Of a stretch of DNA of 64,000 nt, positions 2 to 54,865 are shown piece after piece. Source of the DNA: a virus; the IMG/VR virus record IMGVR_UViG_3300048017_000141. One strand, 5' to 3'. A model generated the notes under the pieces. That model was given only the letters and a program-made list of their open reading frames with translations, was not told where the DNA came from and did no database searches. The number at the start of each line of letters is the position of its first letter. The stretch's first letter is position 1. Position numbers and translations under genes: made by a program.

Positions 2-1780
2 GGTAAATGGATGGATCCATCCACAACTTGGGATAGTGAAACTATAATATCAGATCTGCATAATATTACAGAGGGCTCAGGAAGAAAAGCTTGGCTATCA
101 GAGTTTATTGAAAATGCAGATAGTATATTCTCTCCGGAAAATCTTAATAAGGTACAGTCAATATACGGTACAAATGTTAGAATTGCTTTAGAGGATTCTT
201 TGTATAGAATGAAAAATGGCAAAAGTAGACCGGAAGGAACAGATAATCTTACTAATAAATGGATGAACTGGATTAATGGTTCTACTGCGGCAATAATGTT
301 TTTCAATACAAGATCAGCATTGTTACAAACAATATCAGCTATCAACTACTTGAATTGGACTGATAATAATGTATGGACGTCTGCGAAAGCATTTGCCAAT
401 CAGAAACAGTACTGGAGTGACTTCGCTATGATTATCAATTCAGATAAGATGAAGGAAAGAAGATCTGGATTAAAAGCGGATGTAACGCAAGCAGAGATTG
501 CTAATGCAGCCAATAGTACAAAGAGTAAGGCACTCGGTGTTTTATCTTATTTACAAAAGATTGGATTTACACCAACACAAGCAGCAGATAGTTTCTCTAT
601 TGCAATTGGGGGAGCAGCTTTCTATAGAAATAGAGTGAAAACATATCAATCAGAGTATACTGGCTTGGATGCTGATGGAAACTTAAAAAGAAAATATACA
701 GATAAAGAGGCTGAAGATAAAGCTTGGGTAGATTTTTCTAATATAACGGACCAATCAATGCAATCGGCCGATCCTTTATATGTTTCTAAGCAGCAAACGA
801 CCTCATTAGGGCGCCTTGTTTTGGCTTTTGGTAATACTCCAATGCAATATAATAGATTGATTAAAAAAGCAGCCCTAGACATAGCTAATAAGCGCGGAAA
901 CTTTGGAACGAATATATCAAAAATAATTTATTATGGAGCTTTGCAAAACTTTATATTCTCAGCATTACAAGCGGCATTATTCTTACCATTCGAAGATGAA
1001 AAAGATGAAGAAGAATTAGCAGCGATGTCTAAAGAAGATAGAAAAGCGTATGAGAAGTTGATCAAAAAGCAGAATGATAAAACAATAGGTATTGCAAATG
1101 GTATGGTTGATACCGTATTAAGAGGTTCTGGTATTACTGGAGCGCTTATATCAACAATAAAAAATACCATAATAGAATACAATAAGCAAGAGGAAAGAGA
1201 AATGTTTGCCGATCATGCGCAGACTTTGTTAACCGCATCCGGTATATCTCCATCAATAAGCTCAAAAGCTAGAAAAGTGTACGGTATTATTCGAATGAAT
1301 AAATTTGAGAAGGACGTAATAGCCGAAAGAGGGTGGGAAGTTACAAGAGACGGAAGATTGAACCTTAGTCCTAATTACAATATCGCTGGTAATGCTGTTG
1401 TTGCTACAACCAATATACCCTTAGACAGGTTAGTTGAAAAAGTCAACAACGTTGCTGAAGCGCTAGATTCTAGAAACAATAAAATTCAGAGAATAGCTTT
1501 ATCTTTAGGATGGAAGCCGTGGGAATTAAATGTTAAGAATGAAGAAAGCGAGCAAATAAAAGCAAAAGCAAAAGAAGTAAGAAAGAAAGAAGGCGTTGAA
1601 AAATCTATACAAACCAGAGCTGATAAGAAAGAAGCTGAAGAAGCTGCTTATAAAGCAATGTCTCCACAAGAGAAAATGGTTTACCGTAGACAAAAAAGCG
1701 AAAAGCAACTGCAAAAAAGAAAAGAAAAAGCACAACGCAAATTGCAAGAAATACGCAAGAAAAGGAAAATGGGAGAATAA
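2..1780 (+). CDS. C-terminal part of a large virion-associated (polyvalent-type) protein, 5' truncated by the window edge
   Basis: The frame is open from base 2, and the ATG at 11 is only the first Met in the track. The tail is very basic and Lys/Glu-rich. It is on the same strand as the giant ORF that runs off the 3' window edge. Confidence 0.6.
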   Translation, partial: GKWMDPSTTWDSETIISDLHNITEGSGRKAWLSEFIENADSIFSPENLNKVQSIYGTNVRIALEDSLYRMKNGKSRPEGTDNLTNKWMNWINGSTAAIMFFNTRSALLQTISAINYLNWTDNNVWTSAKAFANQKQYWSDFAMIINSDKMKERRSGLKADVTQAEIANAANSTKSKALGVLSYLQKIGFTPTQAADSFSIAIGGAAFYRNRVKTYQSEYTGLDADGNLKRKYTDKEAEDKAWVDFSNITDQSMQSADPLYVSKQQTTSLGRLVLAFGNTPMQYNRLIKKAALDIANKRGNFGTNISKIIYYGALQNFIFSALQAALFLPFEDEKDEEELAAMSKEDRKAYEKLIKKQNDKTIGIANGMVDTVLRGSGITGALISTIKNTIIEYNKQEEREMFADHAQTLLTASGISPSISSKARKVYGIIRMNKFEKDVIAERGWEVTRDGRLNLSPNYNIAGNAVVATTNIPLDRLVEKVNNVAEALDSRNNKIQRIALSLGWKPWELNVKNEESEQIKAKAKEVRKKEGVEKSIQTRADKKEAEEAAYKAMSPQEKMVYRRQKSEKQLQKRKEKAQRKLQEIRKKRKMGE

Positions 1781-1885: not shown

Positions 1886-3607
1886 TTATCCGTCGCATGA
1901 AACACAATCAACCATTGCTTTAGCAGCAATATCTCCACGTAGCACTGATTCAGTTCGCATATAATATAAGGTTTTGATACCTTTTTTCCATGCTTCAAAA
2001 TGAACTTGGTTAATCCATTTTGGTGTTGCTTCGCTTGGAAACGCTAAGTTTAAACTAACTGATTGATCAATATACTGTTGTCGTATTCCAGCCTGATTTA
2101 CTAATTCCAATTGGTTTATTTCCTTAAAAGTTTTGAATACGTCTTTAACAGGTATATCTTTATATGCGCCAAAAAACTTATCGTCAAGTTCTTTTATGTC
2201 CTGTACAGAACCACCATCTTCGAGTATTTTATTCCAGATTGCATCGGTATTTAACCCAAAGCCTTCTAACACTTTTTCTAATGTTGGATTTCTACGGATA
2301 AACGTACCCTTGGCAGTTTGTTCGGTAAAAACATTGGCAGCCCAAGGTTCAATACCTGAGCTAACATTACCACTAAGTTTGCTATTACTGACAGTAGGAG
2401 CCACTGCACGTAGATGAGTATTACGCATTCCAGTACCAACACACCATAAAGGTTCTCCATAAATCTCTGCAAGATCTTTGCTGGCTCTTTCACTCTCAAT
2501 TTTAATTTGTGAAAAAATCTTCCTAGTCTCAAACTGAGATAATAGACCTTCGAAAGGAAGTCCTTTTTCTTGGAGGTAAGTGTGCCATCCGAGGACTCCC
2601 AAGCCAAGAGCTCTCCCTTTTTGCGCAGACCGAACCGAATTCTCAAATCCGCGTAACCCTTTGGCTCGTTGGATAAATTCTTCCATAACTCCATCAAGAA
2701 AGAACGTGGCGTCATATATAAGGTTAGTATCTTTCCATTCTTCATATTTAGCTAAATTTAGTGATGATAAACAGCAAACAAAACTGTGTGTTTCGTCCGT
2801 ATGTAATGTTATTTCCGAGCAGATATTAGTCATGTGAACTTTTAATCCATGTGTTCTATATGCTTGCGGATTTGCTTTATTTGTATTTCCTTTGAATAAA
2901 ACATACGGCTCGCCAGTTGCTTTTCTTTTTTGCAAAAGCTTACTCCATCTTCTTCTAGCTTCCTGATCTCCAGATTCTAACTTACGCATAAACTTATCGC
3001 CAACGACTACACATTGATGTAAGTTTAACGCTTGTCTATTCATGTCTCCCTTAGGCTCTCTTATTTCAAGCCATTGATCAAAATCCTTATGTTCTATATT
3101 TATATTAACAGAAGCAGCACCTCTTCTTACTGAACCTTGATTCGTTGCTAATATAGTCGAATCATAAATTTTACAGAATGGAACAACACCATCTGAAGTA
3201 CCGTTGCCGGTTATCTTTGAGCCAGCTGCTCTGATCTGATTTACGCCAATACCAACTCCTCCACCGTGTTTAGCTAACAACATCATCTCCAAGTTTTTTT
3301 GGCCAATGTCCTGAATCGAATCGGCCACATCAATACCAAAACAACTAATTGGTAAACCCCTATCTGTTCCTGTGTTTGATAATACGGGTGACGCTAAACA
3401 TAACCATCCTTTCCATATATAATCAAAGAATTTTTCAGCCATTTCAGGCTTGTATAATCTTCTAGCAACAGTAGTAGCTACTCTATTATAAGCGTCCCTT
3501 GGGGTTTCGCCGGGCAATAAATATCCCCCGGCAATTGTCTTTTTGTAAACATCAGTGTTACCCCAATCAGGAAAATCTACACCTGGTTTCCATTCTTCCT
3601 TCCACAT
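1886..3607 (-). CDS. nrdA: Ribonucleotide reductase class I large subunit
   Basis: 573 aa with the catalytic-site context TNICSEITL and PISCFG/GGGVG-type motifs. It sits next to the nrdB homologue. Confidence 0.9.
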   Translation of the reverse strand: MWKEEWKPGVDFPDWGNTDVYKKTIAGGYLLPGETPRDAYNRVATTVARRLYKPEMAEKFFDYIWKGWLCLASPVLSNTGTDRGLPISCFGIDVADSIQDIGQKNLEMMLLAKHGGGVGIGVNQIRAAGSKITGNGTSDGVVPFCKIYDSTILATNQGSVRRGAASVNINIEHKDFDQWLEIREPKGDMNRQALNLHQCVVVGDKFMRKLESGDQEARRRWSKLLQKRKATGEPYVLFKGNTNKANPQAYRTHGLKVHMTNICSEITLHTDETHSFVCCLSSLNLAKYEEWKDTNLIYDATFFLDGVMEEFIQRAKGLRGFENSVRSAQKGRALGLGVLGWHTYLQEKGLPFEGLLSQFETRKIFSQIKIESERASKDLAEIYGEPLWCVGTGMRNTHLRAVAPTVSNSKLSGNVSSGIEPWAANVFTEQTAKGTFIRRNPTLEKVLEGFGLNTDAIWNKILEDGGSVQDIKELDDKFFGAYKDIPVKDVFKTFKEINQLELVNQAGIRQQYIDQSVSLNLAFPSEATPKWINQVHFEAWKKGIKTLYYMRTESVLRGDIAAKAMVDCVSCDG

Positions 3608-3869: not shown

Positions 3870-4838
3870 TTACCATATATTTTCAAAGTCTTCTCCCTCA
3901 TTCGCTTTGCTATAATCAGTTGATCGCATTGCGAAGAAGTCTGTATGTGTTACACCGCCTGTCAAATGATAAAACCAATCTAAGTTCTTAGCAATATCTT
4001 CGTCATAATGAAAATAATTTGCTATTTCAGTATACCCAAGTTCAGCCAACTTTTCATTTGCTCTTTTACGCAAAAAGTGTTTTAGATCATTTGAGGATAT
4101 ACCTTCAATGTCACCCATCTCAAACATCTTATCTATATAATCGTGCTCTAATTTTACCATTAAACTAGCTGCTACTATTACATCTTCTTTCACTTGTTCT
4201 TTTAACCAAGGTATTTCGTCACACATTTGTCTAAATAACCTGCAACCCATTTTACTATGAAGCGATTCATCTCTTACGCTCCATTTCATTTGTTGCCCGA
4301 TGCCCTTTAGCATGTTTCTAAGCTGGAATGAATATAATACAGCAAAAGCTGAATATAGACTAACTCCTTCAGCAAATGCTGAAAATATGGCTAAAGATCT
4401 CGCGATGCTTTCTACATTGTCATCCTTAGGTAACATTAAGTTCTCGAAACGAGACGCCGTAGCTGGTTCATGTAAAAAAGCTTTAAAGTCATCTAATCCT
4501 AATGTTTCATTTAGATAGCTATAAGCAGCTGCATGAATTGTTTCCTGTGATCCAAAAGCCATTGCCATATGTTTTATCTCATGCTTTGGAAACCATTTTG
4601 TTACATATCCAGTCCAATAATCAGACACCGCACATTCCGTTTGAGCAAAACCTAGTAATATATTACCTACTAAGTTTTTTTCTGCAGCATTCAATTTTTC
4701 GTTCCAATCTTTAACATCACCGGACATTGGTATTTCTGTATGTAACCAAAAAGCCTGCATTTGCGGCAACCAACCCTCTAAATAATATTCAGGGTATTCA
4801 AAGGGCTTATATTCAATCCTTTCATTAAATAATCCCAT
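3870..4838 (-). CDS. nrdB: Ribonucleotide reductase class I small subunit
   Basis: 322 aa with ferritin-like di-iron motifs (QETIHAAAYSY, EGVSLYSAFA, RDESLH). Confidence 0.9.
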   Translation of the reverse strand: MGLFNERIEYKPFEYPEYYLEGWLPQMQAFWLHTEIPMSGDVKDWNEKLNAAEKNLVGNILLGFAQTECAVSDYWTGYVTKWFPKHEIKHMAMAFGSQETIHAAAYSYLNETLGLDDFKAFLHEPATASRFENLMLPKDDNVESIARSLAIFSAFAEGVSLYSAFAVLYSFQLRNMLKGIGQQMKWSVRDESLHSKMGCRLFRQMCDEIPWLKEQVKEDVIVAASLMVKLEHDYIDKMFEMGDIEGISSNDLKHFLRKRANEKLAELGYTEIANYFHYDEDIAKNLDWFYHLTGGVTHTDFFAMRSTDYSKANEGEDFENIW

Positions 4839-5007: not shown

Positions 5008-5175
5008 TTAATTGTTTTTACTAAATGTTTCTATTGTTTCTAATAAGTCTTTATATCTTATAATGCCTTTTGTTTCAAATGACCATTTCACCCATTTTGC
5101 TATTTGTCTTTCGGCATATCTTTTCCTGGCTATTGCTTTCGCTTGTCCAGTATCATTTGAACTGTTATGTCGCAT
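5008..5175 (-). CDS. Small hypothetical basic protein (55 aa, hand-translated)
   Basis: ATG at 5175, overlapping the stop of the upstream gene by 11 nt. It fills an otherwise empty gap. Confidence 0.35.
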   Translation of the reverse strand: MRHNSSNDTGQAKAIARKRYAERQIAKWVKWSFETKGIIRYKDLLETIETFSKNN

Positions 5176-5416
5176 TCTTTTTTCCATTTTTTTTATTTAA
5201 AGTGCACCCATTATAATCACAGTAATGAAATAATGCTTCTGTCATTAAAGCCAGTGCTGGATGTTCATATTTTGCTATTATTTCGTACCCCTCAATTATA
5301 TTGCCGTTTCTTTGATGTTCTTTCATCCTGTCGGATATAAGCCCAGTAACGCCAACGTAATGTTCCTCCGGTAAATAATAAACGTACCAATACCCGTCTT
5401 TTTTTATGTAATGCAA
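5165..5416 (-). CDS. Stand-alone GIY-YIG-like domain protein
   Basis: YVYYL..HYVGVT..R..EH fits the GIY-(N9-10)-YIG...R...E pattern. At 83 aa it lacks any DNA-binding extension. Confidence 0.5.
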   Translation of the reverse strand: MHYIKKDGYWYVYYLPEEHYVGVTGLISDRMKEHQRNGNIIEGYEIIAKYEHPALALMTEALFHYCDYNGCTLNKKNGKKNAT

Positions 5417-5863
5417 TTATTTTTTTCTTCCGCTTAATATTAGATCTACTGTTTTAAGGCACTCAGCTTGGTTTTGAGGTTTATATAACGTTCGGGTATC
5501 TTTTGTATCCTTTAGGAATTTTTTAAATAATTTCCACCTTAATGGAAAAGATTCATTAGCTCTACCTTTTGTTTCTATAATAAAATCCTCTCCTTCAAAA
5601 TCCGGAGTGTACTTTAAATTTAAAACTTTTTTATTCCCTCTATTGATAAAATCACCCTTACTGTTTGACTGTCTTTCTATACTATCATTTTCAAAATGAA
5701 AAGCCGGTATTAATTCATATGTTTTATGTTCATAATTAAAATCTATCTTAGCTTTCTTAAGAGCCATATACATATACTTCTCTAAGCCGGAAGCAAAGGT
5801 GATGCCATCATACACCACCTTTTTTGCTACAACCGGTCCTTTTTTTCTAGACCTTTTAATCAA
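5417..5863 (-). CDS. PD-(D/E)XK nuclease, DUF1064-like (putative resolvase)
   Basis: The motifs DGITFASGLE..Y, YTPDF, IIETKG and RWKLFKKFL match my memory of the DUF1064 pattern. Confidence 0.6.
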   Translation of the reverse strand: MIKRSRKKGPVVAKKVVYDGITFASGLEKYMYMALKKAKIDFNYEHKTYELIPAFHFENDSIERQSNSKGDFINRGNKKVLNLKYTPDFEGEDFIIETKGRANESFPLRWKLFKKFLKDTKDTRTLYKPQNQAECLKTVDLILSGRKK

Positions 5864-6275
5864 CGCACAGCGATTTTAGAAATTCCTTAAAACTAGTATA
5901 TTCTGTATCATCATCTTCGTCAATTGTCCAATTACGCCCATGACCATTCTTCCGCTTCTTTTGCATCAAGGTATCTTTCGATTGTTTTTTTTTATCTTGT
6001 TCGAATACAAAAGAATCTATAACATCTATGTCGTTTAAAGACTTTAATAGCTCTTTTTCCTCACGTAAGGTTGCTATTTCTTCTTTTAAACGTTGTAGAT
6101 ATAAAGTAGCATCCATTAGCTCCTCTTGTAAGTGATTTAACCAAGTATGCACATCTGAGTTATCCTCCCTCAATGTTTTTCCATATTTAGCAAATCCAAC
6201 ATCAGATCGATCTACAAATTTATTTACAACACATTGGACAACCGGGTCTCTAAATTTAATTGTTTGTTCTGTCAT
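5856..6275 (-). CDS. Putative all-alpha NTP pyrophosphohydrolase-like protein (MazG/DUF550-like)
   Basis: The pattern FAKYGKT...W.NHLQEELMDATLYL resembles phage MazG-like or dNTP diphosphohydrolase N-terminal domains. This assignment is from memory only. Confidence 0.4.
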   Translation of the reverse strand: MTEQTIKFRDPVVQCVVNKFVDRSDVGFAKYGKTLREDNSDVHTWLNHLQEELMDATLYLQRLKEEIATLREEKELLKSLNDIDVIDSFVFEQDKKKQSKDTLMQKKRKNGHGRNWTIDEDDDTEYTSFKEFLKSLCVD

Positions 6276-6276
6276 A

Positions 6277-7137
6277 TTATAAAGTGTTTTTTACAAAAGT
6301 TCCATTAACCATACTGCCTTGTCTTGATTTAATTACATTGTACGCGGAATCTATACAATCTTCAACGGTAAAACCTTCTAAATGAGCCAAATTAGTCAAT
6401 ACAACAATCATATCACCAATCGCATCTTTTACTTCTGGTTTATCCTTTTTAAGAATAGCTTGAGCTAATTCGCCTGCTTCTTCCATTAATTTAACATATT
6501 GCGTTTTTGAATCTCCAGAATCATATATACCTTTATCTGTTGCCCAATTTCTTATATTGGTAAAAACGCTTGTTGTTTCAGGAGAATAATGGCTCCTAAG
6601 TATATTTCTAAGGAAAGTTTCCATATCCTGACTAACGGCAGGTACTAATGCTTCATCAATATGTTTCATTGGATTAACATCATTAGCTTTACTATTGTTA
6701 TAGAACTCGTGTAAGGCTTTATTATATACATAACATCTATTTGTATTGTACATAGAAGTTTGTGCGTTAGAAGCTATAAAATTAGCCAATTTTTGATCTA
6801 ATTTATAAGATCCAAATCCATTTGTAATGTTCATTCCTATATTGTCAGCAAGCTGTCCTTTTAGCTTGTTTAATGGACAAGGAAATGTGATTGTTTGTTC
6901 TGTTACGTTTAATTTCATTTTATTTGATTTAATTACTTGTTTATAACTTTGACGATCTTGCTTATAGCCGTAGATAAGTTGAAGCTCTAATTCCCGCGAT
7001 GAAATATAATTAATATCATCACTAGAATCTAGAACTTCGTATTCTCCAATCTGGTAGCCTTGTGCCACTGTAACTCTTTTGTTAAGATTACGTGTAACAC
7101 CAACCTTTTTACCGGGTATATGATAAATATAATACAT
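6277..7137 (-). CDS. Fusion of an N-terminal GIY-YIG-like domain and a C-terminal MazG-type nucleotide pyrophosphohydrolase
   Basis: The N-terminus reads YYIYHIPGKKVGVTRNLNKR. The C-terminus reads LMEEAGELAQA...AIGDMIVVLTNLAH, the EExGE...D signature of MazG. Confidence 0.7.
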   Translation of the reverse strand: MYYIYHIPGKKVGVTRNLNKRVTVAQGYQIGEYEVLDSSDDINYISSRELELQLIYGYKQDRQSYKQVIKSNKMKLNVTEQTITFPCPLNKLKGQLADNIGMNITNGFGSYKLDQKLANFIASNAQTSMYNTNRCYVYNKALHEFYNNSKANDVNPMKHIDEALVPAVSQDMETFLRNILRSHYSPETTSVFTNIRNWATDKGIYDSGDSKTQYVKLMEEAGELAQAILKKDKPEVKDAIGDMIVVLTNLAHLEGFTVEDCIDSAYNVIKSRQGSMVNGTFVKNTL

Positions 7138-7148
7138 CTTTTTTCTAT

Positions 7149-7937
7149 TTAGACAGCTACTGTCGCACGTAAAACGGGTCCGTGTTCATAGTCTGATATT
7201 GTTAATACTTTTTTATTATATTCATATTTTGGCAAATTGAATATTGGCAACTGCAAATAATTTTTTACAGCTTCTTCTTGATTGCTATACACGTGAGCAT
7301 CTATTATCTGCAGATCTAATATATTAGGTTTTAGTCCTGTTTCTTCAGCAACATAAAATAATAATGTTGTGAATAGAGCTACATCATATGGAATACCAAG
7401 AAACAAATCTCCTGATCTTTGTAATGCAAATAAATTTAATTTACCGTTTTCAACAAAAAATTGAAAGTATAAATAACAAGGCGGTAATTTCATTTGATGG
7501 ATTTGTAACGGGTTCCATAAAGATATTACATGGCGTCTACTGTCTGGATCCTTCTTAAGCTTAGTTATAACCTCTTTTAATTGATCCAAACCATTTCCAT
7601 TGTAGTTTCTAAGTTGATGCCCATAAACTGGTCCTAGATCTCCATTTTCATCTGCCCAAGCATCCCATATTTTTATACCAGCTTCTTGGAATCTTTTAAT
7701 ATTAGTTTCTCCATTAACAAACCATTCAAATTCTGTTTTAAAAGTTTTTTCAAACATCTTCCTACCCGTTATCATAGGAAATGTTTTAGAAACATTTATT
7801 CTTAAATTTTTAGAAAATATAGATTTGCATCCAACTCCGGTCCTGTCCTTTCTAGTTACGCCCTTTGCTAATGCTTCTTTTAATATTTTTCTATAATCAA
7901 CCTCGTATTGATTTTTTATTGTTTTTGTATTTGCCAT
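7149..7937 (-). CDS. Thymidylate-synthase-fold pyrimidine C5 methyl/hydroxymethyl transferase, predicted dCMP-specific
   Basis: The motifs DRTGVG, WDAWADENGDLGPVYG, SLWNP, PPC(154) and QRSGD align by eye with E. coli ThyA. The residue at Cys+31 is Asp185 (codon 7383-7385, gat) instead of the ThyA Asn. Confidence 0.85.
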   Translation of the reverse strand: MANTKTIKNQYEVDYRKILKEALAKGVTRKDRTGVGCKSIFSKNLRINVSKTFPMITGRKMFEKTFKTEFEWFVNGETNIKRFQEAGIKIWDAWADENGDLGPVYGHQLRNYNGNGLDQLKEVITKLKKDPDSRRHVISLWNPLQIHQMKLPPCYLYFQFFVENGKLNLFALQRSGDLFLGIPYDVALFTTLLFYVAEETGLKPNILDLQIIDAHVYSNQEEAVKNYLQLPIFNLPKYEYNKKVLTISDYEHGPVLRATVAV

Positions 7938-7938
7938 A

Positions 7939-8274
7939 TTAAAATAAAGATTGTTGTTTTGGTTTCTTTGTTATTTGTTCTTCTTGCTCTACTTTCTTTA
8001 TATCTTTTACAACCTCATTGATTTGGTTATGTTTATTGTAATAATATAAATAAAACTTATATAGTTGTTTCCATATATCTATTTTACCGTAAGCCAATGG
8101 ACTTCTATTAACTGATCCATTTATTATTATATCTAAATACCATTCTTTTGTATTTTTAGGAGCTGGTGATATACTTATATTATTTCTTATTCCCCATTCA
8201 AAAGCAGATTGCTCTTTTTCAGATGGTATGTAATTTCCCATATCTATCTGATTCTTTTTGAATCCGCTTCCCAT
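7939..8274 (-). CDS. Hypothetical protein
   Basis: 111-aa ORF tightly packed between neighbouring genes. Confidence 0.5.
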   Translation of the reverse strand: MGSGFKKNQIDMGNYIPSEKEQSAFEWGIRNNISISPAPKNTKEWYLDIIINGSVNRSPLAYGKIDIWKQLYKFYLYYYNKHNQINEVVKDIKKVEQEEQITKKPKQQSLF

Positions 8275-9998
8275 TATAACTCCCAGGGCATTTTATCATT
8301 GGATATATTGACGGGTTCATGAGGTAAGAAACATCCAGACTTTGGTTCCCATTTAAAGTGACATTCTGCTCCATTCTCTCCAAGATTTTGAAACTTAACC
8401 TTAAGTACTTTTACTTTAACAGTTTTGTCTTCATAGTTTCTATGAACTAATAATCCGTGATATGACGCATCGTACCATTCTCCACCGCCCTTGATATTAT
8501 ACATGGTTGGTTCCTCAATCTTACCATCTTTGTCTTTATACATCTTAGTTGGATGAGCAACAATAAATACTAAAACATCAAACTTTTTCGCAAATATTTC
8601 TATCTTAGAAAGATATTCCATTGTATACTTATTGACATCTTCTGTATTACAATCGGTATCACGTACTTTATTGAATGGATCTATAACTAAACATTTAATA
8701 CCTTTACGTTTTACAAGCTCACCCGCTTTTCTAAGCACGGACTCTAATGTATATCTTTCCATGTCAATGTGGAAAAAGTTTTGATTACAATGATCAGCAA
8801 TCTGGTTCCATTTGTCAGTACCAATATCTTCTTTTGTTGGCATACCTTCCCAAACTTTTCGCATTAATTTATGAGCATGCAGATATGTAGGCACATTTTC
8901 AGGTGAAGCAAAAGCTGTTTTCCACCCATACTTATTATTATAGCCAACAACCATTTGATCAACAAAATCAGATTTACCGGAACTTGGTACACCGGTAACA
9001 GTAATAAATTGCCCAGTATATGTTGAGAATATATCATCAAAGTTAGGTAGACCTACTTGAAAACCTGGTTTAAATCCATTATGAACAAAATCAGTAATCT
9101 CGTTTTCAATATCCTTGAATGTTGTTACATTCTCCATTGGTACAGGCTTAGCACTGCTAATACACTGTGATAACTTTTCTGTACCGTATTTTAATAAATA
9201 TTCATTAGCATCTTTACAATCATCGAAATTTGCAATGTAAACAAGTTCAGATCCTAACCTTCTAATCAATTCAGCTTGTAATGCTTGGCCAGGTTCGTCA
9301 GCATCTACAGCAATAATAATCTTTTCTTTATCATCAAAATAGTCGATACAATTATCTAAATAATCTAAATTATTGTGATGAAGAGTAGCTCCGTTTGGAA
9401 CAGACACCGCGTTAGTTATACCAGCTTCATGTAATGCCAGCACATCCATCTCGCCTTCAACAATAATACAATAATCCCAGCCAACTATGCTATTGATGTT
9501 ATAAAATACTTTTTCAGCTCCTTTGTATAATTTAAAGTTTTTACGGCCATCTCTGTATTTTATGTTTACAAGATCATTACCTATTAAGTAATTAAACTGA
9601 ATTGTATTCTCTAGTTTACCAGTTTGAGGCATAAATTCTTGACCCTCTGTTACTTGCAATTCATACAAAGTGTTACGTGAAATACCTCTTATATTAAACC
9701 ATTCTACAACTTGTTCGCTTAATTGCATTTCCTCAACGTGCTCTTTTACTGGCGGCTTCTCATAAACTTTTTCGCTTTTTCCTTTTCGTTTATAAGTATG
9801 TAATTGGAATGTCTTGCTACAATTATGGCAAGTACCTATTCCTCTTTCCCAGTCATATGACGCACATTTAGCTTTTTTATGTTCACCTTTTCTATCTTGG
9901 GAACATAATGGACATATACCTTGTGCTTTTTCCTCTAATCTATATTGATTAAAGTTATCTATTTGGAATCCATTTATTTCTGTTCTGTTTACTTGCAT
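8274..9998 (-). CDS. Bifunctional DNA primase/helicase (T7 gp4-like)
   Basis: It has a zinc ribbon (CPLCS...CHNC), a TOPRIM region (IIVEGEMDVLAL, AVDADEPG) and a DnaB-type Walker A (GVPSSGKS). The likely start is MQVNR at 9998 rather than the track start at 10043. Confidence 0.9.
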   Translation of the reverse strand: MQVNRTEINGFQIDNFNQYRLEEKAQGICPLCSQDRKGEHKKAKCASYDWERGIGTCHNCSKTFQLHTYKRKGKSEKVYEKPPVKEHVEEMQLSEQVVEWFNIRGISRNTLYELQVTEGQEFMPQTGKLENTIQFNYLIGNDLVNIKYRDGRKNFKLYKGAEKVFYNINSIVGWDYCIIVEGEMDVLALHEAGITNAVSVPNGATLHHNNLDYLDNCIDYFDDKEKIIIAVDADEPGQALQAELIRRLGSELVYIANFDDCKDANEYLLKYGTEKLSQCISSAKPVPMENVTTFKDIENEITDFVHNGFKPGFQVGLPNFDDIFSTYTGQFITVTGVPSSGKSDFVDQMVVGYNNKYGWKTAFASPENVPTYLHAHKLMRKVWEGMPTKEDIGTDKWNQIADHCNQNFFHIDMERYTLESVLRKAGELVKRKGIKCLVIDPFNKVRDTDCNTEDVNKYTMEYLSKIEIFAKKFDVLVFIVAHPTKMYKDKDGKIEEPTMYNIKGGGEWYDASYHGLLVHRNYEDKTVKVKVLKVKFQNLGENGAECHFKWEPKSGCFLPHEPVNISNDKMPWEL

Positions 9999-10143
9999 AT
10001 AAGATGATTTGATTGTTAATGAGTATAGATAGAAAAACCCCAATTGATGGGGCTTAACTAACTATTTAAGGCTATAACCTTAAAAGAAAATAAAAATTTA
10101 AGGTTATAAGCTTAAAATTTATTATTTATTTAAACTTATTAGT

Positions 10144-12289: not shown

Positions 12290-13057
12290 TTATAGGAAAT
12301 CAAGGACTTGTGAGTGATCAACGGAATTTATTAATTTGTTAACCGCTTGCTTTTTTAGTTCAGATATACGAACATATGAGCTAGCTCCTTCTATTCCTAA
12401 TTTATCAGCAATCTCGTTTGCTGAATACTTATCACCGTCTAAACCATAACTTAGCTTTAATACTTCTGATTCTCGTTCGTTTAGATATTTATCAATTATA
12501 GAACTTAAAAAAGTGTGCATGATTGTTATATTATATGGTTCCGATCTATCCTCAATCTCATAAAATGAAATACCAATAGTGTCTTCGTTCTCAGTTAATA
12601 CTTGGTCGTCAATGCTTAAAAATATTGAATTAAAAAACAAAGCTGACATGCTTTCATTCTGACCTCCATCTTTTCTTATCTCATTCAATTTATGTTCCGG
12701 TAATTTTATATTACCACGGTTGATGTCAATAGCTCTTCGTATTGAGCCTTTTATTCTTTTAGATAAAAATGACTTCAATGTTTTTTCTATATCATTAGAA
12801 GCGTTTAATTGAGCAAAATCTAGCTTATCAACAGCATATATTAATCCAATACTTCCCTCCTGTATCAAATCTGTTATGTCCATAACACCCGATGCTTGGT
12901 CTGATGTCGAAAATTTACGAGCAATGTTTTCTACTAATGGTAAAAATTTATTTATAAACTCTGATCTTTCATATTCAGTCCAATCTCTTGGCTTTGGCTG
13001 AGCACTTAAAACATCTTTTTTGTACCTTAAATAATTTTGTAAATTATAATTTTTCAT
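12290..13057 (-). CDS. Phage-encoded sigma-70-family RNA polymerase sigma factor
   Basis: Region 2 reads DLIQEGSIGLIYAVDKLD. The region 4 HTH reads SEVLKLSYGLDG..YSANEIADKLG...ISELKKQAVNKL. Confidence 0.85.
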   Translation of the reverse strand: MKNYNLQNYLRYKKDVLSAQPKPRDWTEYERSEFINKFLPLVENIARKFSTSDQASGVMDITDLIQEGSIGLIYAVDKLDFAQLNASNDIEKTLKSFLSKRIKGSIRRAIDINRGNIKLPEHKLNEIRKDGGQNESMSALFFNSIFLSIDDQVLTENEDTIGISFYEIEDRSEPYNITIMHTFLSSIIDKYLNERESEVLKLSYGLDGDKYSANEIADKLGIEGASSYVRISELKKQAVNKLINSVDHSQVLDFL

Positions 13058-18345: not shown

Positions 18346-18786
18346 TTATTTATCTTTTAAATGCGCTTTACCAATTTCATAATATTTTTTGTAACCATCA
18401 ACAGCGTCAGCCATTTTGTATTCGTCAGGCATACATTGCGGTGGATCGCAAAAATCTTCAGCGTGTATAGCATGAGGTACTTTAGACAGAATATCACGAC
18501 ACTTAGCAATTGTTAAATGGTGCTTGCTATAACGTCTTGTATATTCAGCGCCTAAAGCTAGCATATATTCATAACACCATAAATAGTTAGCTCTTGATGA
18601 TCTTACCCATACAGCCGATGGATGGTTCATATGTGTTTTCTTGTAAGGCACATCATCAGGGTTGCCGGATAAATGATGTGCTGTGCAAAGCAATTGAGCA
18701 GCCTCTAATACCATTTTTACTACGTGTTTATTGTAGTGTTGTTGTGCGGCTTTTGTTGGATTGCGATCTAAATAAAATATGTTCAT
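18346..18786 (-). CDS. Conserved hypothetical protein (MNIFYLD...HVVKM...AQLL family)
   Basis: 146 aa. I recognise the N-terminal motif as recurrent in phages and large viruses but cannot name a function. Confidence 0.6.
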   Translation of the reverse strand: MNIFYLDRNPTKAAQQHYNKHVVKMVLEAAQLLCTAHHLSGNPDDVPYKKTHMNHPSAVWVRSSRANYLWCYEYMLALGAEYTRRYSKHHLTIAKCRDILSKVPHAIHAEDFCDPPQCMPDEYKMADAVDGYKKYYEIGKAHLKDK

Positions 18787-18846: not shown

Positions 18847-18921
18847 CTTGACTATCTCACACTTAGCTTATATCCAGATACTACCGGGAAATGCCCAGAA
18901 GCGATAAGCACCTTTAATTTG

Positions 18922-18995
18922 TGTCCGCAGCAGGGTTTGAACCTGCGACCTATTGATTATGAGTCAATTGCTCTGACCAGCTGAGCTATGCGGAC
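18922..18995 (-). tRNA. tRNA with anticodon CAT (Met, or Ile2 if lysidine-modified)
   Basis: Hand-folded 74-nt cloverleaf. Acceptor is GTCCGCA/TGCGGAC, D arm GCTC/GAGC and anticodon arm ATTGA-CTCATAA-TCAAT. T arm is GCAGG-TTCAAAC-CCTGC and the discriminator is A. No CCA is encoded. Confidence 0.9.
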
Positions 18996-31632: not shown

Positions 31633-33195
31633 ATGGCAGATGCAATTGTAAAAAACCTTAGCTTTGGAGAAGACGCTCGAAAGAAGGTATTTGAAGGCAT
31701 TACTAAATTAACAAAAGCAGTAAGTTCTACACTTGGTGCTAGTGGTAAATGCGTAATATTAGAAGACGGAGCAGGTAGACCTGTAATAACAAAAGACGGA
31801 GTAACAGTAGCTGATAGTATCATACTGTTGGATCCTATTGAAAATATGGGTGCTACTCTTTTAAAAGAAGCCGCTCGCAAAACAGTTAAAGAAGCTGGAG
31901 ACGGAACTACAACCGCTACAGTATTATCTCACTCGATCTTAACAGAAGCTTACAATAATACAGAAGGTGAGAGTAGTAGAAATATAAAAGAAATGATTGA
32001 TCAAGCAACTCAAGAGGTTGTAGAATACTTAGAAAGTATTGCAATCCCTGTTTCGGGTGATATTATTGATCATGTTGCTACAATTTCTGCCAACAATGAT
32101 AAAGAGCTTGGTAAAATAATTGCTGATGCTTTTAGAGCTGCTGGAGACAATGGCGTTGTGATGATGGAATCTTCCGCATCAAACACCACTGAAATAGAAT
32201 TGATTGATGGTATTCAATATGACAAAGGATTAGTTAATTCTAACTTTGTAACTAATCCAGCTAAAAAAGCTGCTGAGTTAGAAAATGCATATGTATTGAT
32301 TATAGAATCACCAGTTGAGAACGTAAGACAAATACAAAGCATACTTGAATTCGTAATGAAGGAAAGAAAAGCTTTGCTAATTATAGCAGACATGGAACAA
32401 CCTGTTTTAGCTGTATTAGCAATGAATAAAATAAAAGGTAATATAAAAGTGAACGTTATTAACGCGCCTACTTATGGTATCAATAAAAAAGATACTTTAA
32501 TGGATTTAGCATTATTAACAGGATCTACTATAATAAATGAAGATCTTGGTGATGATATGGATTTAATCGATCCATCAAATCTTGGTTTCTGTACAAAAGC
32601 AATAACGACAGACGCTGAGACCATCATTCAAGTAAATGATCCAAGCGAAGAAGCTTTAGCTTTAATTGATCAAGTAAAAAAAGATATTAGCGATACAAAG
32701 AACCCCGGTGAACTTATTCGTTTAGAAAGAAGGTTAGCTAGATTATCTGGAAAAGTGGCTGTTGTAAAAGTAGGTGCAAATTCAGAAGTTGAATTAAAAG
32801 AAAAAGCAGATAGAGTAGAAGACGCAATATGCGCAACTAAAGCAGCTATTAAAGAAGGTATTGTTCCTGGCGGAGGAATTGCATTATTAGATGCCTCAGA
32901 AAAATTATTCGCGGCTTCTGCGGGATATAGAATAATGAAGGAAGCAATTAAAGCTCCTTTTAAAACAATATTATCTAATGCCGGAATTATGGATACATCC
33001 ATGCCAAAAAGAAGTGTTGGAGAAGGTTTAAATATTGTTACGAATAAAAGGGTCAATATGATAGAGGAAGGTATCGTAGATCCTTTGTCTGTTACTAAGA
33101 GCGCTTTGAAGAATGCAGTATCAGTGGCTACTACTATATTATCAACCGATTGTGTAATCAATAATCTACGTGTAGGGAATGAAAGCAATAGGTAA
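31633..33195 (+). CDS. groEL: Chaperonin GroEL (Cpn60) homologue
   Basis: FGEDAR, ITKDGVTVA and AGDGTTTATVL are collinear with E. coli GroEL. The 520-aa protein has no C-terminal GGM tail. Confidence 0.95.
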   Translation: MADAIVKNLSFGEDARKKVFEGITKLTKAVSSTLGASGKCVILEDGAGRPVITKDGVTVADSIILLDPIENMGATLLKEAARKTVKEAGDGTTTATVLSHSILTEAYNNTEGESSRNIKEMIDQATQEVVEYLESIAIPVSGDIIDHVATISANNDKELGKIIADAFRAAGDNGVVMMESSASNTTEIELIDGIQYDKGLVNSNFVTNPAKKAAELENAYVLIIESPVENVRQIQSILEFVMKERKALLIIADMEQPVLAVLAMNKIKGNIKVNVINAPTYGINKKDTLMDLALLTGSTIINEDLGDDMDLIDPSNLGFCTKAITTDAETIIQVNDPSEEALALIDQVKKDISDTKNPGELIRLERRLARLSGKVAVVKVGANSEVELKEKADRVEDAICATKAAIKEGIVPGGGIALLDASEKLFAASAGYRIMKEAIKAPFKTILSNAGIMDTSMPKRSVGEGLNIVTNKRVNMIEEGIVDPLSVTKSALKNAVSVATTILSTDCVINNLRVGNESNR

Positions 33196-36729: not shown

Positions 36730-36946
36730 CATTCGAAAAATAAGTATTGGGTCAGATTATAAAAATGACGCAATGCACTATTCTATACATCAAGAAGTAT
36801 ATGGGGGTCATAAGATTTCCCATATACTATTTGAAGAAGAAGACGGGTCATATAATATATTTATAAAAAAAGGAGATGAGGTAATGCCGTGGAAGAAATT
36901 CAATAACACAATGGCAATAGCTATCGAATATGATTTAGAATATTAA
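36710..36946 (+). CDS. Hypothetical protein
   Basis: 78-aa ORF. Confidence 0.5.
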   Translation: MMSQAYNIRKISIGSDYKNDAMHYSIHQEVYGGHKISHILFEEEDGSYNIFIKKGDEVMPWKKFNNTMAIAIEYDLEY

Positions 36947-37557
36947 TGGATATGCAAAGTATGTATGACTTCATTGTTAAACCTGTTGGGAATAGGTACA
37001 ATAATAAAGTTAAAGTAGGAGATAGAGAGCTTATAACTAATACATCTGTGGAAACATTTAAAGCTATAAACAATATGGCTGAGGTTGTATCCGTACCATT
37101 ACTATATGAAACAGATATAAAAGTTGGTGACAAAGTGATAATACATCACAATGTTTTTCGAAGATTCTATGACATTAGAGGCAAACAAAAAAACAGTAGA
37201 TCCTATTTTACTGAAGACTTATATTTTGTCGCTCCGGATCAAATATATTTGTATGGAGATAGCCATAAATGGCAGAGTTTTGGAGATCGTTGCTTTGTTA
37301 AGCCGATAAAAAATAATGACCAATTTAGCTTAGAAAAAGAAAGAAAGCTTATAGGAATACTAAAAATTGGAAATAGCTCTTTAAATGAGCTTAAAATCAA
37401 TCCTGGAGACCTTGTTGGATATAAACCATACGGGGAATTTGAATTTATAATAGATGAGGAGCGATTGTATTGTATGAAATCAAATGATATTGTAATAAAA
37501 TATGAATATAGCGGAGACGAAGTTGAGTATAATCCAAGCTGGGCAAAAAGCAGTTGA
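36946..37557 (+). CDS. Hypothetical protein
   Basis: 203-aa ORF. Confidence 0.55.
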   Translation: MDMQSMYDFIVKPVGNRYNNKVKVGDRELITNTSVETFKAINNMAEVVSVPLLYETDIKVGDKVIIHHNVFRRFYDIRGKQKNSRSYFTEDLYFVAPDQIYLYGDSHKWQSFGDRCFVKPIKNNDQFSLEKERKLIGILKIGNSSLNELKINPGDLVGYKPYGEFEFIIDEERLYCMKSNDIVIKYEYSGDEVEYNPSWAKSS

Positions 37558-53341: not shown

Positions 53342-54865
53342 ATGGCAGCAATATTAGAAGTAAAATATTTTAACTCTTTCTGGTTAAAGAAGATGGATAC
53401 AATTGTTGAGGTAGAAAACACAACAGGCATCTTAGATGGAGCTGTCAGTACTGCAACAATAAATTTAACTGAAAATAACTTAAATATAGGAGTAGGGCAA
53501 ACGGTTTCTTGGATAGGAGCCGTTGAGCCTTATCCGGTAGTTTATAAGAAAATAAGTGATTTATCATTTGAATTAAGTGAAGCGGTTTCAATACCAGATG
53601 CAACAGAATTAACATTTGGACCAATAACGGATTTCACTTATATACCTTCCGCTTATGAAGAATCAGCATCGGATTGGTATGTTGAAGAAACAAGAATAAG
53701 AGGTGGTTATAATAATACTAATGTAGACTTAGGCGTTAAAGCTTATATAGTTGAAGATGATATTAATCAACAACATTTACAAAGTGGGCTTATATACTCA
53801 GGTATATTTAATTCAAGAACTGGTATTAACAAAACAAATGAGTTTTCAACTGGTGAAGAAATAACTAGAAGTGTTGATCCTTACAATGGATCTATACAGA
53901 AGCTGTTTTCAGAAGATACAAATTTAACTATATTCCAGGAATTTAAAGTCAGTCGAGCATTGATAGATAAAGACGCTATATATTCTGCAGACGGACAGCC
54001 AATGACAACCTCAGGAGCGCAAGTAATAGGCCAGATTCAATCGTACGCTGGTAACTATGGTATTGCTACTAATCCTGAAAGTTTTGCTGTGTATGGCTAT
54101 CGAAAATACTTTGTGGATAGAAATAGAAATGTTGTATTAAGGCTTTCTCAAGACGGAATAAGTGAAATATCTGAATACGGAATGGGCGATTTCTTTAGAG
54201 ACAGTTTATCCGAAGCAGGGAATGATGGTCTTATACTTGGTATGTGGGACATGCATAATAAGGAATATGTTGTTTCTATACAGCAAACTAATGGCACATA
54301 TAATACTTTAGCGTTTGACGAAGATGTATCTGGATGGACAAGTTTCTTCTCTTTTAAACCTAATTGGGGTGATAGTCTTAGAAATAATTTTTACACATTT
54401 AAAGACGGTAATATATACGTTCACTATTCAACTAATGTTAATTACTCAAACTTCTATGGTGTAGATAATCCTTCAGAGGTGAAGGTTGTATTCAATCCAG
54501 AAGTATCAACAATAAAAACATTCAAAACACTTAATTACGAGGGTAGGCTAGGATGGGAAGCGGTTTCGTTTTATACTGACACAGACTTGTCATCGCCTAT
54601 AGCTCCTTCGGTTAATTTATATACATTAGCGGATGTAGAGCAGCAATTGTTCACAAATACATTCAAGAAAAAGGAAAATAAATTCTTTGCTAATTTAATA
54701 AATATAACTCCGTCATCTAGTGGTGAAGTAGTTTGGGGTAATTCAATGACTGGTGTTAAAGGAGCCTATGCTACGGTAATTATGAGCTATTCGAATACAG
54801 TTAGTCCTGGGCGAAAAGCTGAGTTATTTGCAGTATCATCTGAATACATGGATTCATCATATTAA
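53342..54865 (+). CDS. Virion structural protein (putative)
   Basis: 507-aa ORF. Confidence 0.6.
   Translation: MAAILEVKYFNSFWLKKMDTIVEVENTTGILDGAVSTATINLTENNLNIGVGQTVSWIGAVEPYPVVYKKISDLSFELSEAVSIPDATELTFGPITDFTYIPSAYEESASDWYVEETRIRGGYNNTNVDLGVKAYIVEDDINQQHLQSGLIYSGIFNSRTGINKTNEFSTGEEITRSVDPYNGSIQKLFSEDTNLTIFQEFKVSRALIDKDAIYSADGQPMTTSGAQVIGQIQSYAGNYGIATNPESFAVYGYRKYFVDRNRNVVLRLSQDGISEISEYGMGDFFRDSLSEAGNDGLILGMWDMHNKEYVVSIQQTNGTYNTLAFDEDVSGWTSFFSFKPNWGDSLRNNFYTFKDGNIYVHYSTNVNYSNFYGVDNPSEVKVVFNPEVSTIKTFKTLNYEGRLGWEAVSFYTDTDLSSPIAPSVNLYTLADVEQQLFTNTFKKKENKFFANLINITPSSSGEVVWGNSMTGVKGAYATVIMSYSNTVSPGRKAELFAVSSEYMDSSY

Follow-up and report, generated by a model that had tools for sequence, protein, structure and literature searches.

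Enzymes of the thymidylate synthase (TS) fold differ in the pyrimidine that they read, and an Asp at the position of Asn177 in Escherichia coli ThyA is the accepted determinant of deoxycytidylate (dCMP) rather than deoxyuridylate (dUMP) use (PMC8670742; PMC13326640; PMC6400193). Asn-to-Asp mutants that switch to dCMP date from 1992, when Hardy and Nalivaika, and also Liu and Santi, described them (both as cited in PMC8670742). Among Pfam domains, PF00303 showed the strongest association with cytosine-modified contigs in phage metaviromes from sewage and coastal water, and the two TS positions that differed most were 177 and 147, with Asp177 in the modified contigs (Yang et al., eLife 2021; PMC8670742). 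Here we describe a ThyA-like gene on the minus strand, at 7149..7937, of a 64,000-nucleotide viral stretch, IMG/VR record IMGVR_UViG_3300048017_000141 (the window, by which we mean this whole stretch of DNA). An earlier note, made from the letters of the window, had applied to it the rule that Asp at the uracil-reading Asn means dCMP, which the studies cited above establish. We predict a ThyA-fold enzyme switched from dUMP to dCMP, most likely a deoxycytidylate C5-methyltransferase, a reading that we hold with fair though not high confidence, and the phage DNA probably carries 5-methylcytosine. The residue logic behind this prediction has been in print since 1992 and has been applied at metavirome scale, and the kind of enzyme is not new.

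Further positions have been linked to the product that a dCMP-using enzyme makes. The hydroxymethylase signature comprises an acidic residue three positions before the catalytic Cys (Cys-3; T4 Asp145 against E. coli Leu143), Ser94 and Val85 replacing Trp83, without the C-terminal tail (Park et al., IUCrJ 2019; PMC6400193). A 2026 NAR paper codes N177D as dCMP use, L143D/E as hydroxymethyl transfer and D169N as 5-hydroxy-dCMP synthase (PMC13326640). In a 2024 preprint, Asp177 homologues were chosen for testing by their adjacency to dCMP deaminases, and five of seven, as well as the enzyme of Xanthomonas phage Xp12, made 5-methyldeoxycytidine (5mdC) in E. coli (bioRxiv 10.1101/2024.12.05.627091). 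The same study found that most analysed dCMP deaminases of modified contigs also lay near a TS homologue, with PRA-PH in the top five domains within 3 kb of the deaminases and DNA polymerase A also at the top.

Set beside these systems, the ThyA-like protein of the window has the plan of the engineered enzymes E. coli ThyA N177D and Lactobacillus casei TS N229D, in which an Asp likewise stands in a canonical scaffold with the hydride-transfer residues and tail intact. It differs from them in being natural, fixed in a large clade, and further changed by H147Y, C168G and S180L, and its sequence comes close to a natural copy of the classic N177D mutant. With the Asp177 TS homologues of cytosine-modified metavirome contigs (MetaGPA) it shares Asp177, a residue other than His at 147, a neighbour of the PRA-PH/MazG type and an environmental phage origin, but those enzymes were chosen beside a dCMP deaminase and often co-localise with DNA polymerase A, neither of which was found in this phage. 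The Xp12 dCMP methyltransferase (MT664984, QNN97214), whose reaction is the one predicted here, also has Asp177, has lost His147, and has a ribonucleotide reductase (RNR) in its genome. It is only 28% identical, however, with Asn143, Phe83, Pro147, another C-terminus and a 20-residue insertion, and its gene stands beside a dCMP deaminase and a dihydrofolate reductase (DHFR), both of which were not found in this window. The T4 dCMP hydroxymethylase gp42 shares the TS fold, the catalytic Cys and an Asp for cytosine (Asp179), but it is 22% identical, carries Asp145, Ser94 and Val85 and has no C-terminal tail; in addition, no glucosyltransferase or deoxynucleoside monophosphate (dNMP) kinase was found in this window. 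In T4, the pyrophosphatase gp56, a dCTPase, feeds dCMP to gp42. Judged by alignment, the ThyA-like protein is orthologous to neither of the classical phage enzymes, that of Xp12 and T4 gp42. Among the matches listed, the closest GenBank phage homologue is the ThyA of the uncultured Mediterranean phage MedDCM-OCT-S28-C10 (AP013540, BAQ94086; 45.7%), which also has Asp177/Tyr147 but differs in a Tyr at 83 and a C-terminal tail that is not conserved; its gene forms part of a cassette (NTP pyrophosphohydrolase, dTMP kinase, ThyA, dCMP deaminase) that adjoins a DNA polymerase I.

The gene and the codons on which its reading depends are located as follows.

7149..7937 (-): ThyA-like gene, 262 aa, ATG start; predicted dCMP C5-methyltransferase, from PF00303 and the residue signature
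7485..7487 (-): TTA, Leu151 (E. coli L143); Leu in 120/120 homologues, a hydrophobic residue here being the methyl signature
7473..7478 (-): TGT-TAT, catalytic Cys154 (E. coli C146) and Tyr155 (E. coli H147); Tyr in 120/120 homologues
7407..7409 (-): GAT, Asp177 (E. coli D169); the 5-hydroxy-dCMP synthase signature D169N is absent
7383..7385 (-): GAT, Asp185 (E. coli Asn177, pyrimidine specificity), placed by HMMER and MAFFT; Asp in 120/120 homologues

The translation matched Pfam PF00303 (Thymidylat_synt) at E = 9.4e-76 over residues 14-251 (254.9 bits against a cut-off of 24.3; profile positions 2-245/266), and 127 TS chains of the PDB matched at E <= 0.001, the best being 6auj (4e-63). Collinearity with E. 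coli ThyA, as the earlier note had it, is borne out by these matches and by the blocks quoted there (DRTGVG, WDAWADENGDLGPVYG, SLWNP, LPPC, QRSGDLFLG and HVYSN), each of which was found in the translation. The HMMER alignment with 6auj, which had a high posterior probability, set FLGIPYDVALF opposite FLGVPFNIASY and LPPCYLYFQF opposite LAPCHAMFQF, and a MAFFT alignment with E. coli ThyA (the reference sequence, identical to PDB 1aob at 264/264 residues) placed Cys154 on Cys146, Tyr155 on His147 and Asp185 on Asn177. Both methods bring the Asp of GIPYD(185) to the Asn177 position, and it stayed there in the alignments that also took in T4 gp42 and the Xp12 enzyme. The codons of Cys154 (7476-7478) and Asp185 (7383-7385) lie where they had been reported, with the 31-residue spacing of E. 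coli ThyA, and the residue after the catalytic Cys is indeed Tyr in place of His. Canonical ThyA sequences are 38-49% identical to the protein (E. coli ThyA, 38%) and the solved structures 40-49%, and at that level of identity the alignment of these residues to solved ThyA structures is unambiguous.

Around these substitutions the active site is that of a conventional ThyA. In E. coli numbering, R21, E58, W80, W83, Y94, R126 and R127 are kept, as are Q165, R166, S167, D169, H207 and Y209; the catalytic and phosphate-binding set reads C154, R32, R134, R135, R174, E69, Y105 and D177 in the numbering of the query. Trp94 and Pro103 correspond to W83 and P92, and the C-terminal tail is retained (...LRATVAV, for ...KAPVAI in E. 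coli). Within a 6-Å shell around C5, differences from E. coli ThyA occur at positions 142, 147, 168 and 177, and of these 147, 168 and 177 do not vary among the close homologues. Taken as aligned, the protein looks like a canonical ThyA after N177D, H147Y, C168G and S180L.

We examined how far these features extend beyond the window in two samples. The first comprised the 120 nearest proteins from a collection of 5.8 billion, all metagenomic and 61-100% identical to the query. Asp177 and Tyr147 (E. coli numbering) were present in every one (120/120), as were Leu143, Asp169, Trp83, Pro92 and the C-terminal tail, and wherever the sources named these proteins they said 'thymidylate synthase'. The second sample held the 150 nearest 50%-identity cluster representatives from an exhaustive search of 1.84 billion representatives; 113 had His147/Asn177 and 31 had Asp177, with Tyr (11), His (10), Pro (9) or Val (1) at position 147 in the latter, and the nearest 5-6 clusters were all Tyr147/Asp177. 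When the 149 sufficiently aligned representatives were taken together with the query, Asn177 was counted 115 times, accompanied by His147 in 113 cases, and the positions that best discriminated the Asp177 from the Asn177 group, after 177 itself, were 180 and then 147. Position 180 held Ser in 98 of the 115 proteins with Asn177, and most of those with Asp177 had Leu, Val or Met there; the cited literature makes no mention of it. The residue there in the present protein is Leu188, whose codon, computed from the start of the open reading frame (ORF), is 7374-7376 (-). Because the substitution is fixed in the homologues and varies together with other positions, Asp177/Tyr147 is, on these alignments, a fixed, co-varying feature of a clade and not a chance substitution. 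In a neighbour-joining tree of 149 TS sequences the Asp177 proteins fell into 22 separate groups, a number that in so crude a tree fits repeated switches and poor resolution equally.

The same residues bear on the product. Asn177, which hydrogen-bonds to O4/N3 of uracil, and His147, next to the catalytic Cys, characterise canonical ThyA; both are replaced (Asp185, Tyr155), and the combination reported for a dCMP C5-methyltransferase is present: Asp at 177, a non-acidic residue at 143 (Leu151) and a retained Asp169 (Asp177). The T4-type hydroxymethylase pattern is contradicted by Leu151 at Cys-3, by Pro103 where that pattern has Ser or Thr two places ahead of the conserved Tyr, by Trp94 and by the LRATVAV tail, and the Asn169 of the 5-hydroxy-dCMP synthase of RB69 gp48 type by Asp177. 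Since the hydroxymethylase and 5-hydroxylase signatures are absent, the predicted reaction is dCMP to 5-methyl-dCMP. The earlier note had left the product at 5-methyl- or 5-hydroxymethyl-dCMP; the methyl half of that statement is favoured by Leu151, Trp94, Pro103, Asp177 and the tail, and the hydroxymethyl half lacks its signature. The residue code should be read as a correlation and not as a law, since the proven Xp12 methylase has Asn143 and Phe83.

In the mechanism that we propose, Cys154 would attack C6 of dCMP while Asp185, replacing the Asn that reads uracil, would bind and protonate cytosine at N3/N4. The methylene of 5,10-methylenetetrahydrofolate would then be moved to C5, and the intact hydride-transfer parts of ThyA (Leu151, Trp94, Asp177 and the closing tail ...ATVAV) would reduce the intermediate to methyl, giving 5-methyl-dCMP and dihydrofolate. 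Host kinases would raise 5-methyl-dCMP to the triphosphate (5-methyl-dCTP), which the replicase of the host, brought in by the primase-helicase of the phage, would insert, so that 5-methylcytosine replaces some or all of the cytosine. Such DNA would blunt restriction. By analogy, an adjacent MazG-domain fusion may hydrolyse deoxycytidine triphosphate (dCTP) to dCMP, thereby feeding the enzyme and depleting its competitor.

The genomic context in which this would take place is a minus-strand early/replication cluster, given here by falling coordinate from a sigma-like factor to the RNR genes, with the ThyA-like gene standing between the 111-aa protein and the MazG fusion.

12290-13057 (-): sigma-70-like factor, matched in regions 2 and 4
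next in cluster order (-): ERF recombinase, PDDEXK nuclease and a 105-aa protein
8274..10043 (-): primase-helicase (Toprim and DnaB-like), the sole replisome enzyme found
7939..8274 (-): 111-aa protein, no family match in Pfam, PHROG or NCBIfam
6277..7137 (-): MazG fusion, 286 aa, directly downstream of the ThyA-like gene; PF03819 at 7.9e-08, PF01503 at 8.8e-06
5856..6275 (-): 139-aa conserved protein, PHROG matches only to families of unknown function
below the 139-aa ORF (-): DUF1064, two small ORFs, then the RNR genes
3870..4838 (-): class I RNR small subunit; PF00268 at 9.6e-56, phrog_86
1886..3607 (-): class I RNR large subunit; PF02867 at 4.5e-93, phrog_84 at 2e-150

This arrangement is not peculiar to the window. 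In five contigs from relatives, whose ThyA homologues are 63-66% identical, the core order ERF, primase-helicase, ~112-aa ORF, ThyA(Asp), PRA-PH/MazG, ~123-aa ORF, DUF1064, RNR recurs, the position of the 111-aa ORF between the primase-helicase and the ThyA-like gene is constant in relatives (loci L004-L008), and the ThyA(Asp)-MazG pair was syntenic in every relative examined.

The MazG fusion has three parts: aa 1-56, possibly GIY-YIG-like; a conserved middle part, aa 74-141; and, at the C-terminus, a MazG/PRA-PH domain spanning aa 190-285 (~nt 6283-6570). Many contigs conserve it at full length, with 57-66% identity. Its C-terminal domain scored 32.9 bits against PF03819 (cut-off 22) and matched PDB 1vmg at 3e-05. 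An AlphaFold2 (AF2) model was of moderate confidence for both terminal domains (N-terminal pLDDT ~84) and rendered the middle domain poorly; a Foldseek search with the C-terminal domain returned 1vmg (TMt 0.77) and also the MazG-like protein of cyanophage S-2L (7ody). The C-terminal domain of 6277-7137 therefore has a supported MazG fold, as modelled. The S-2L enzyme is part of that phage's base-modification pathway. Similarity between the fusion and the T4 dCTPase gp56 was undetectable (hhalign probability 0.9%), which leaves the role of candidate dCTPase, proposed in the earlier note, as a reasonable analogy with gp56 feeding gp42 and with the S-2L enzyme. As a separate observation, the N-terminal 56 residues of the fusion (6970-7137, -) show a beta-beta-alpha-beta-alpha order in the model and a YIY...IGVT...R motif and are possibly GIY-YIG-like; no profile or fold match was found for that reading. 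A separate 83-aa ORF at 5165-5416 (-) bears a similar motif, YVYY..YVGVT..R..H.

We also considered the 139-aa ORF as a second MazG protein, as had been proposed, and rejected it: it had no Pfam, NCBIfam or PDB sequence match, its AF2 model, of low confidence (pLDDT 62), was a helical hairpin for which Foldseek found no match, and comparison with the MazG-fusion family gave 11% in hhalign, with the alignment falling on the middle domain of the fusion. Its stretch GFAKYGKT fits the Walker-A pattern, with no other indication of a kinase. Homologues of the 139-aa protein occur in an Elemovirus and in MW202828, with no ThyA in the stretches examined there. Its N-terminus (MTEQTIKF..P..NKF.D..G...YG) resembles fusion residues 76-112, through a shared small domain or by chance.

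The claim that two MazG-type pyrophosphatases and the RNR lie directly adjacent thus shrinks to one MazG neighbour, the C-terminal domain of 6277-7137; the RNR genes belong to the same strand cluster but are 2.3 kb away. A module for cytosine replacement, as the earlier note called it, is only partly real, and without the second MazG, the RNR adjacency and the companion enzymes the context lends weaker support than had been claimed.

Several points weigh against a dCMP methylase and 5-methylcytosine DNA. Canonical ThyA sequences resemble the protein more closely (38-49% identity) than does the characterised dCMP methylase of Xp12 (28%). In the published in vivo assay two of the seven Asp177 homologues yielded no 5mdC, and co-expression of the T4 gp1 (dNMP) kinase was required (bioRxiv 10.1101/2024.12.05.627091). 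Motif scans, together with searches of virtually every ORF of at least 90 aa in the window against Pfam or PHROG, detected no dCMP deaminase motif, no dNMP or deoxythymidylate (dTMP) kinase and no DHFR, and neither a second TS nor ThyX nor a DNA polymerase; a glycosyltransferase, a TET/JBP-type enzyme and a DNA methyltransferase were likewise not detected, in agreement with the earlier note, which had seen no dNMP kinase or glycosyltransferase. The genome is 67% A+T, hence a high demand for deoxythymidine triphosphate (dTTP). Phage records that match the MazG domain type number 1555 and span many hosts, with phages of Streptococcus and Staphylococcus among them. In a related cultured Elemovirus a PRA-PH gene is present, and its first 32 kb, the part examined, showed no ThyA. 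Phosphorylation of 5-methyl-dCMP, recycling of dihydrofolate, supply of dTMP and polymerisation would all be left to the host, and exclusion of dCTP to the host or to the MazG fusion. Because the companion genes were not found, the whole pathway would depend on the host, and this is the main weakness of a cytosine-replacement module; the phage presumably relies on the host replicase. Because these genes were not found in the window, two of the alternatives to a methylase that modifies the phage DNA also gain weight.

The alternative that survives best, though we consider it unlikely, is that the enzyme is still, or also, a thymidylate synthase, converting dUMP to dTMP exclusively or beside dCMP, with DNA that is canonical or lightly modified. 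Its catalytic residues are canonical save at 177, 147 and 168, the C-terminal tail is intact, and the protein passes the cut-off of the NCBIfam ThyA equivalog TIGR03284, 'thymidylate synthase' (225 against 108 bits). An enzyme of this kind would answer the dTTP demand in a window where the scans showed no other thymidylate source, no deaminase of 5-methyl-dCTP to dTTP, and neither a kinase nor a polymerase suited to a modified nucleotide, and it would agree with the Asp177 enzymes that made no 5mdC in the published test. What speaks for the methylase instead is that Asn177 is near-universal in dUMP-using TS (115/146 of the nearest sequences typed as Asp or Asn), that the published Asn-to-Asp mutants prefer dCMP (cited in PMC8670742), and that Asp is fixed and His147 lost in 120 diverged homologues, which is the pattern of cytosine-modified contigs.

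A thymidylate bypass, in which 5-methyl-dCMP is made but a host dCMP/dCTP deaminase turns it into dTMP/dTTP so that little 5-methylcytosine reaches the DNA, we regard as improbable. Xp12 and the MetaGPA phages do deaminate part of their 5-methyl-dCTP pool to dTTP (bioRxiv 10.1101/2024.12.05.627091), and the same A+T content, the lack of another TS among the genes found and the lack of a demonstrated phage function that excludes dCTP are compatible with such a route. The published systems, however, use a phage-encoded, specialised deaminase, of which none was found here, and the bypass would bring no evident gain over Asn177 and direct use of dUMP.

Another dCMP product, whether 5-hydroxymethyl-dCMP as with T4 gp42, 5-hydroxy-dCMP as with RB69 gp48 or one not yet described, is very improbable: Asp177 is common to all these dCMP enzymes, the Xp12 methylase with Asn rather than Leu at 143 shows that the residue code is not absolute, and to our knowledge the Tyr147/Gly168 combination has no biochemical characterisation, but Cys-3 is Leu and not Asp or Glu, position 92 is Pro and not Ser, Trp83, Asp169 and the tail are kept, and the Pfam/PHROG scans of the ORFs examined returned no glycosyltransferase, carbamoyltransferase or other tailoring enzyme.

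We can also picture a far more specific form of cytosine replacement, minimal and run by two genes, those of ThyA(Asp177/Tyr147) and of the MazG fusion with its possible GIY-YIG-like part. Host enzymes would serve throughout in place of a phage kinase, deaminase, DHFR or DNA polymerase, and a single active site would possibly supply both 5-methyl-dCMP and dTMP. We consider this form doubtful.

The phage itself, by its terminase and portal, is a podophage related to Flavobacterium Elemovirus and to Cellulophaga phages (TerL 45% identity), and also, by terminase, to the uncultured spring phage MW202828 (63% identity). Megablast of the 7 kb around the ThyA-like gene against 50,697 phage records gave no match, and tblastn against phage records gave no TS above 60% identity. 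The stretches examined of Elemovirus and MW202828 contained no ThyA, and no isolate with the ThyA-MazG cassette was identified; a contig of 64,449 bp is on record with a ThyA protein identical to this one.

Other features of the window were noted in passing. A GroEL-like chaperonin (31633-33195, +; PF00118, 1.7e-61) and a GroES-like protein (36946-37557, +; phrog_13932) are encoded, and GroEL/GroES are annotated also in the related Elemovirus and MW202828. From 57484 to the end of the window at 64000 (+) runs a giant ORF of at least 2172 aa that does not close, and a 592-aa frame is open at the window start, 2-1780 (+); the two are probably one gene of ~2900 aa across the contig ends, and genes at the same place in relatives run from 2326 to more than 2860 aa. 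No Pfam family matched the giant ORF, whose aa 205-800 are only 26% identical to a 'structural protein' of an Elemovirus. The 507-aa product of 53342-54865 (+) contains a crAss-virus muzzle protein C-terminal domain (PF25729, 2.9e-11), a hint that crAss-like podophages may be structurally related. At 18346-18786 (-) lies a pyrimidine-dimer DNA glycosylase resembling T4 endonuclease V (phrog_624, 1e-49; PF03013 just under its cut-off), and at 18921-18995 (-), in the early region, a single tRNA-Met (CAT anticodon); a tRNA-Met is present in the related Elemovirus too.

No new principle is opened by this enzyme, which would be a member of a kind known from other phages and from metaviromes. What it adds is modest: an abundant uncultured clade that the source databases (JGI) label 'thymidylate synthase', in an unusually bare genomic context. 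That stripped context, with no deaminase, kinase or polymerase found, raises the question of how much of a modified-nucleotide pathway the host's enzymes can sustain. If the prediction is true, 5-methylcytosine phages would be the source of protein clusters that number in the hundreds at 90% identity, and whose contigs measure ~60-67 kb and keep the same gene order. This would bear on predictions of restriction evasion and of susceptibility to type IV restriction and on methylation-sensitive or nanopore metavirome data, and natural dCMP methylases would be useful reagents for enzyme mining. Should even the doubtful two-gene route prove true, abundant aquatic podophages of Bacteroidota would have DNA heavily substituted with 5-methylcytosine, masked by standard annotation.

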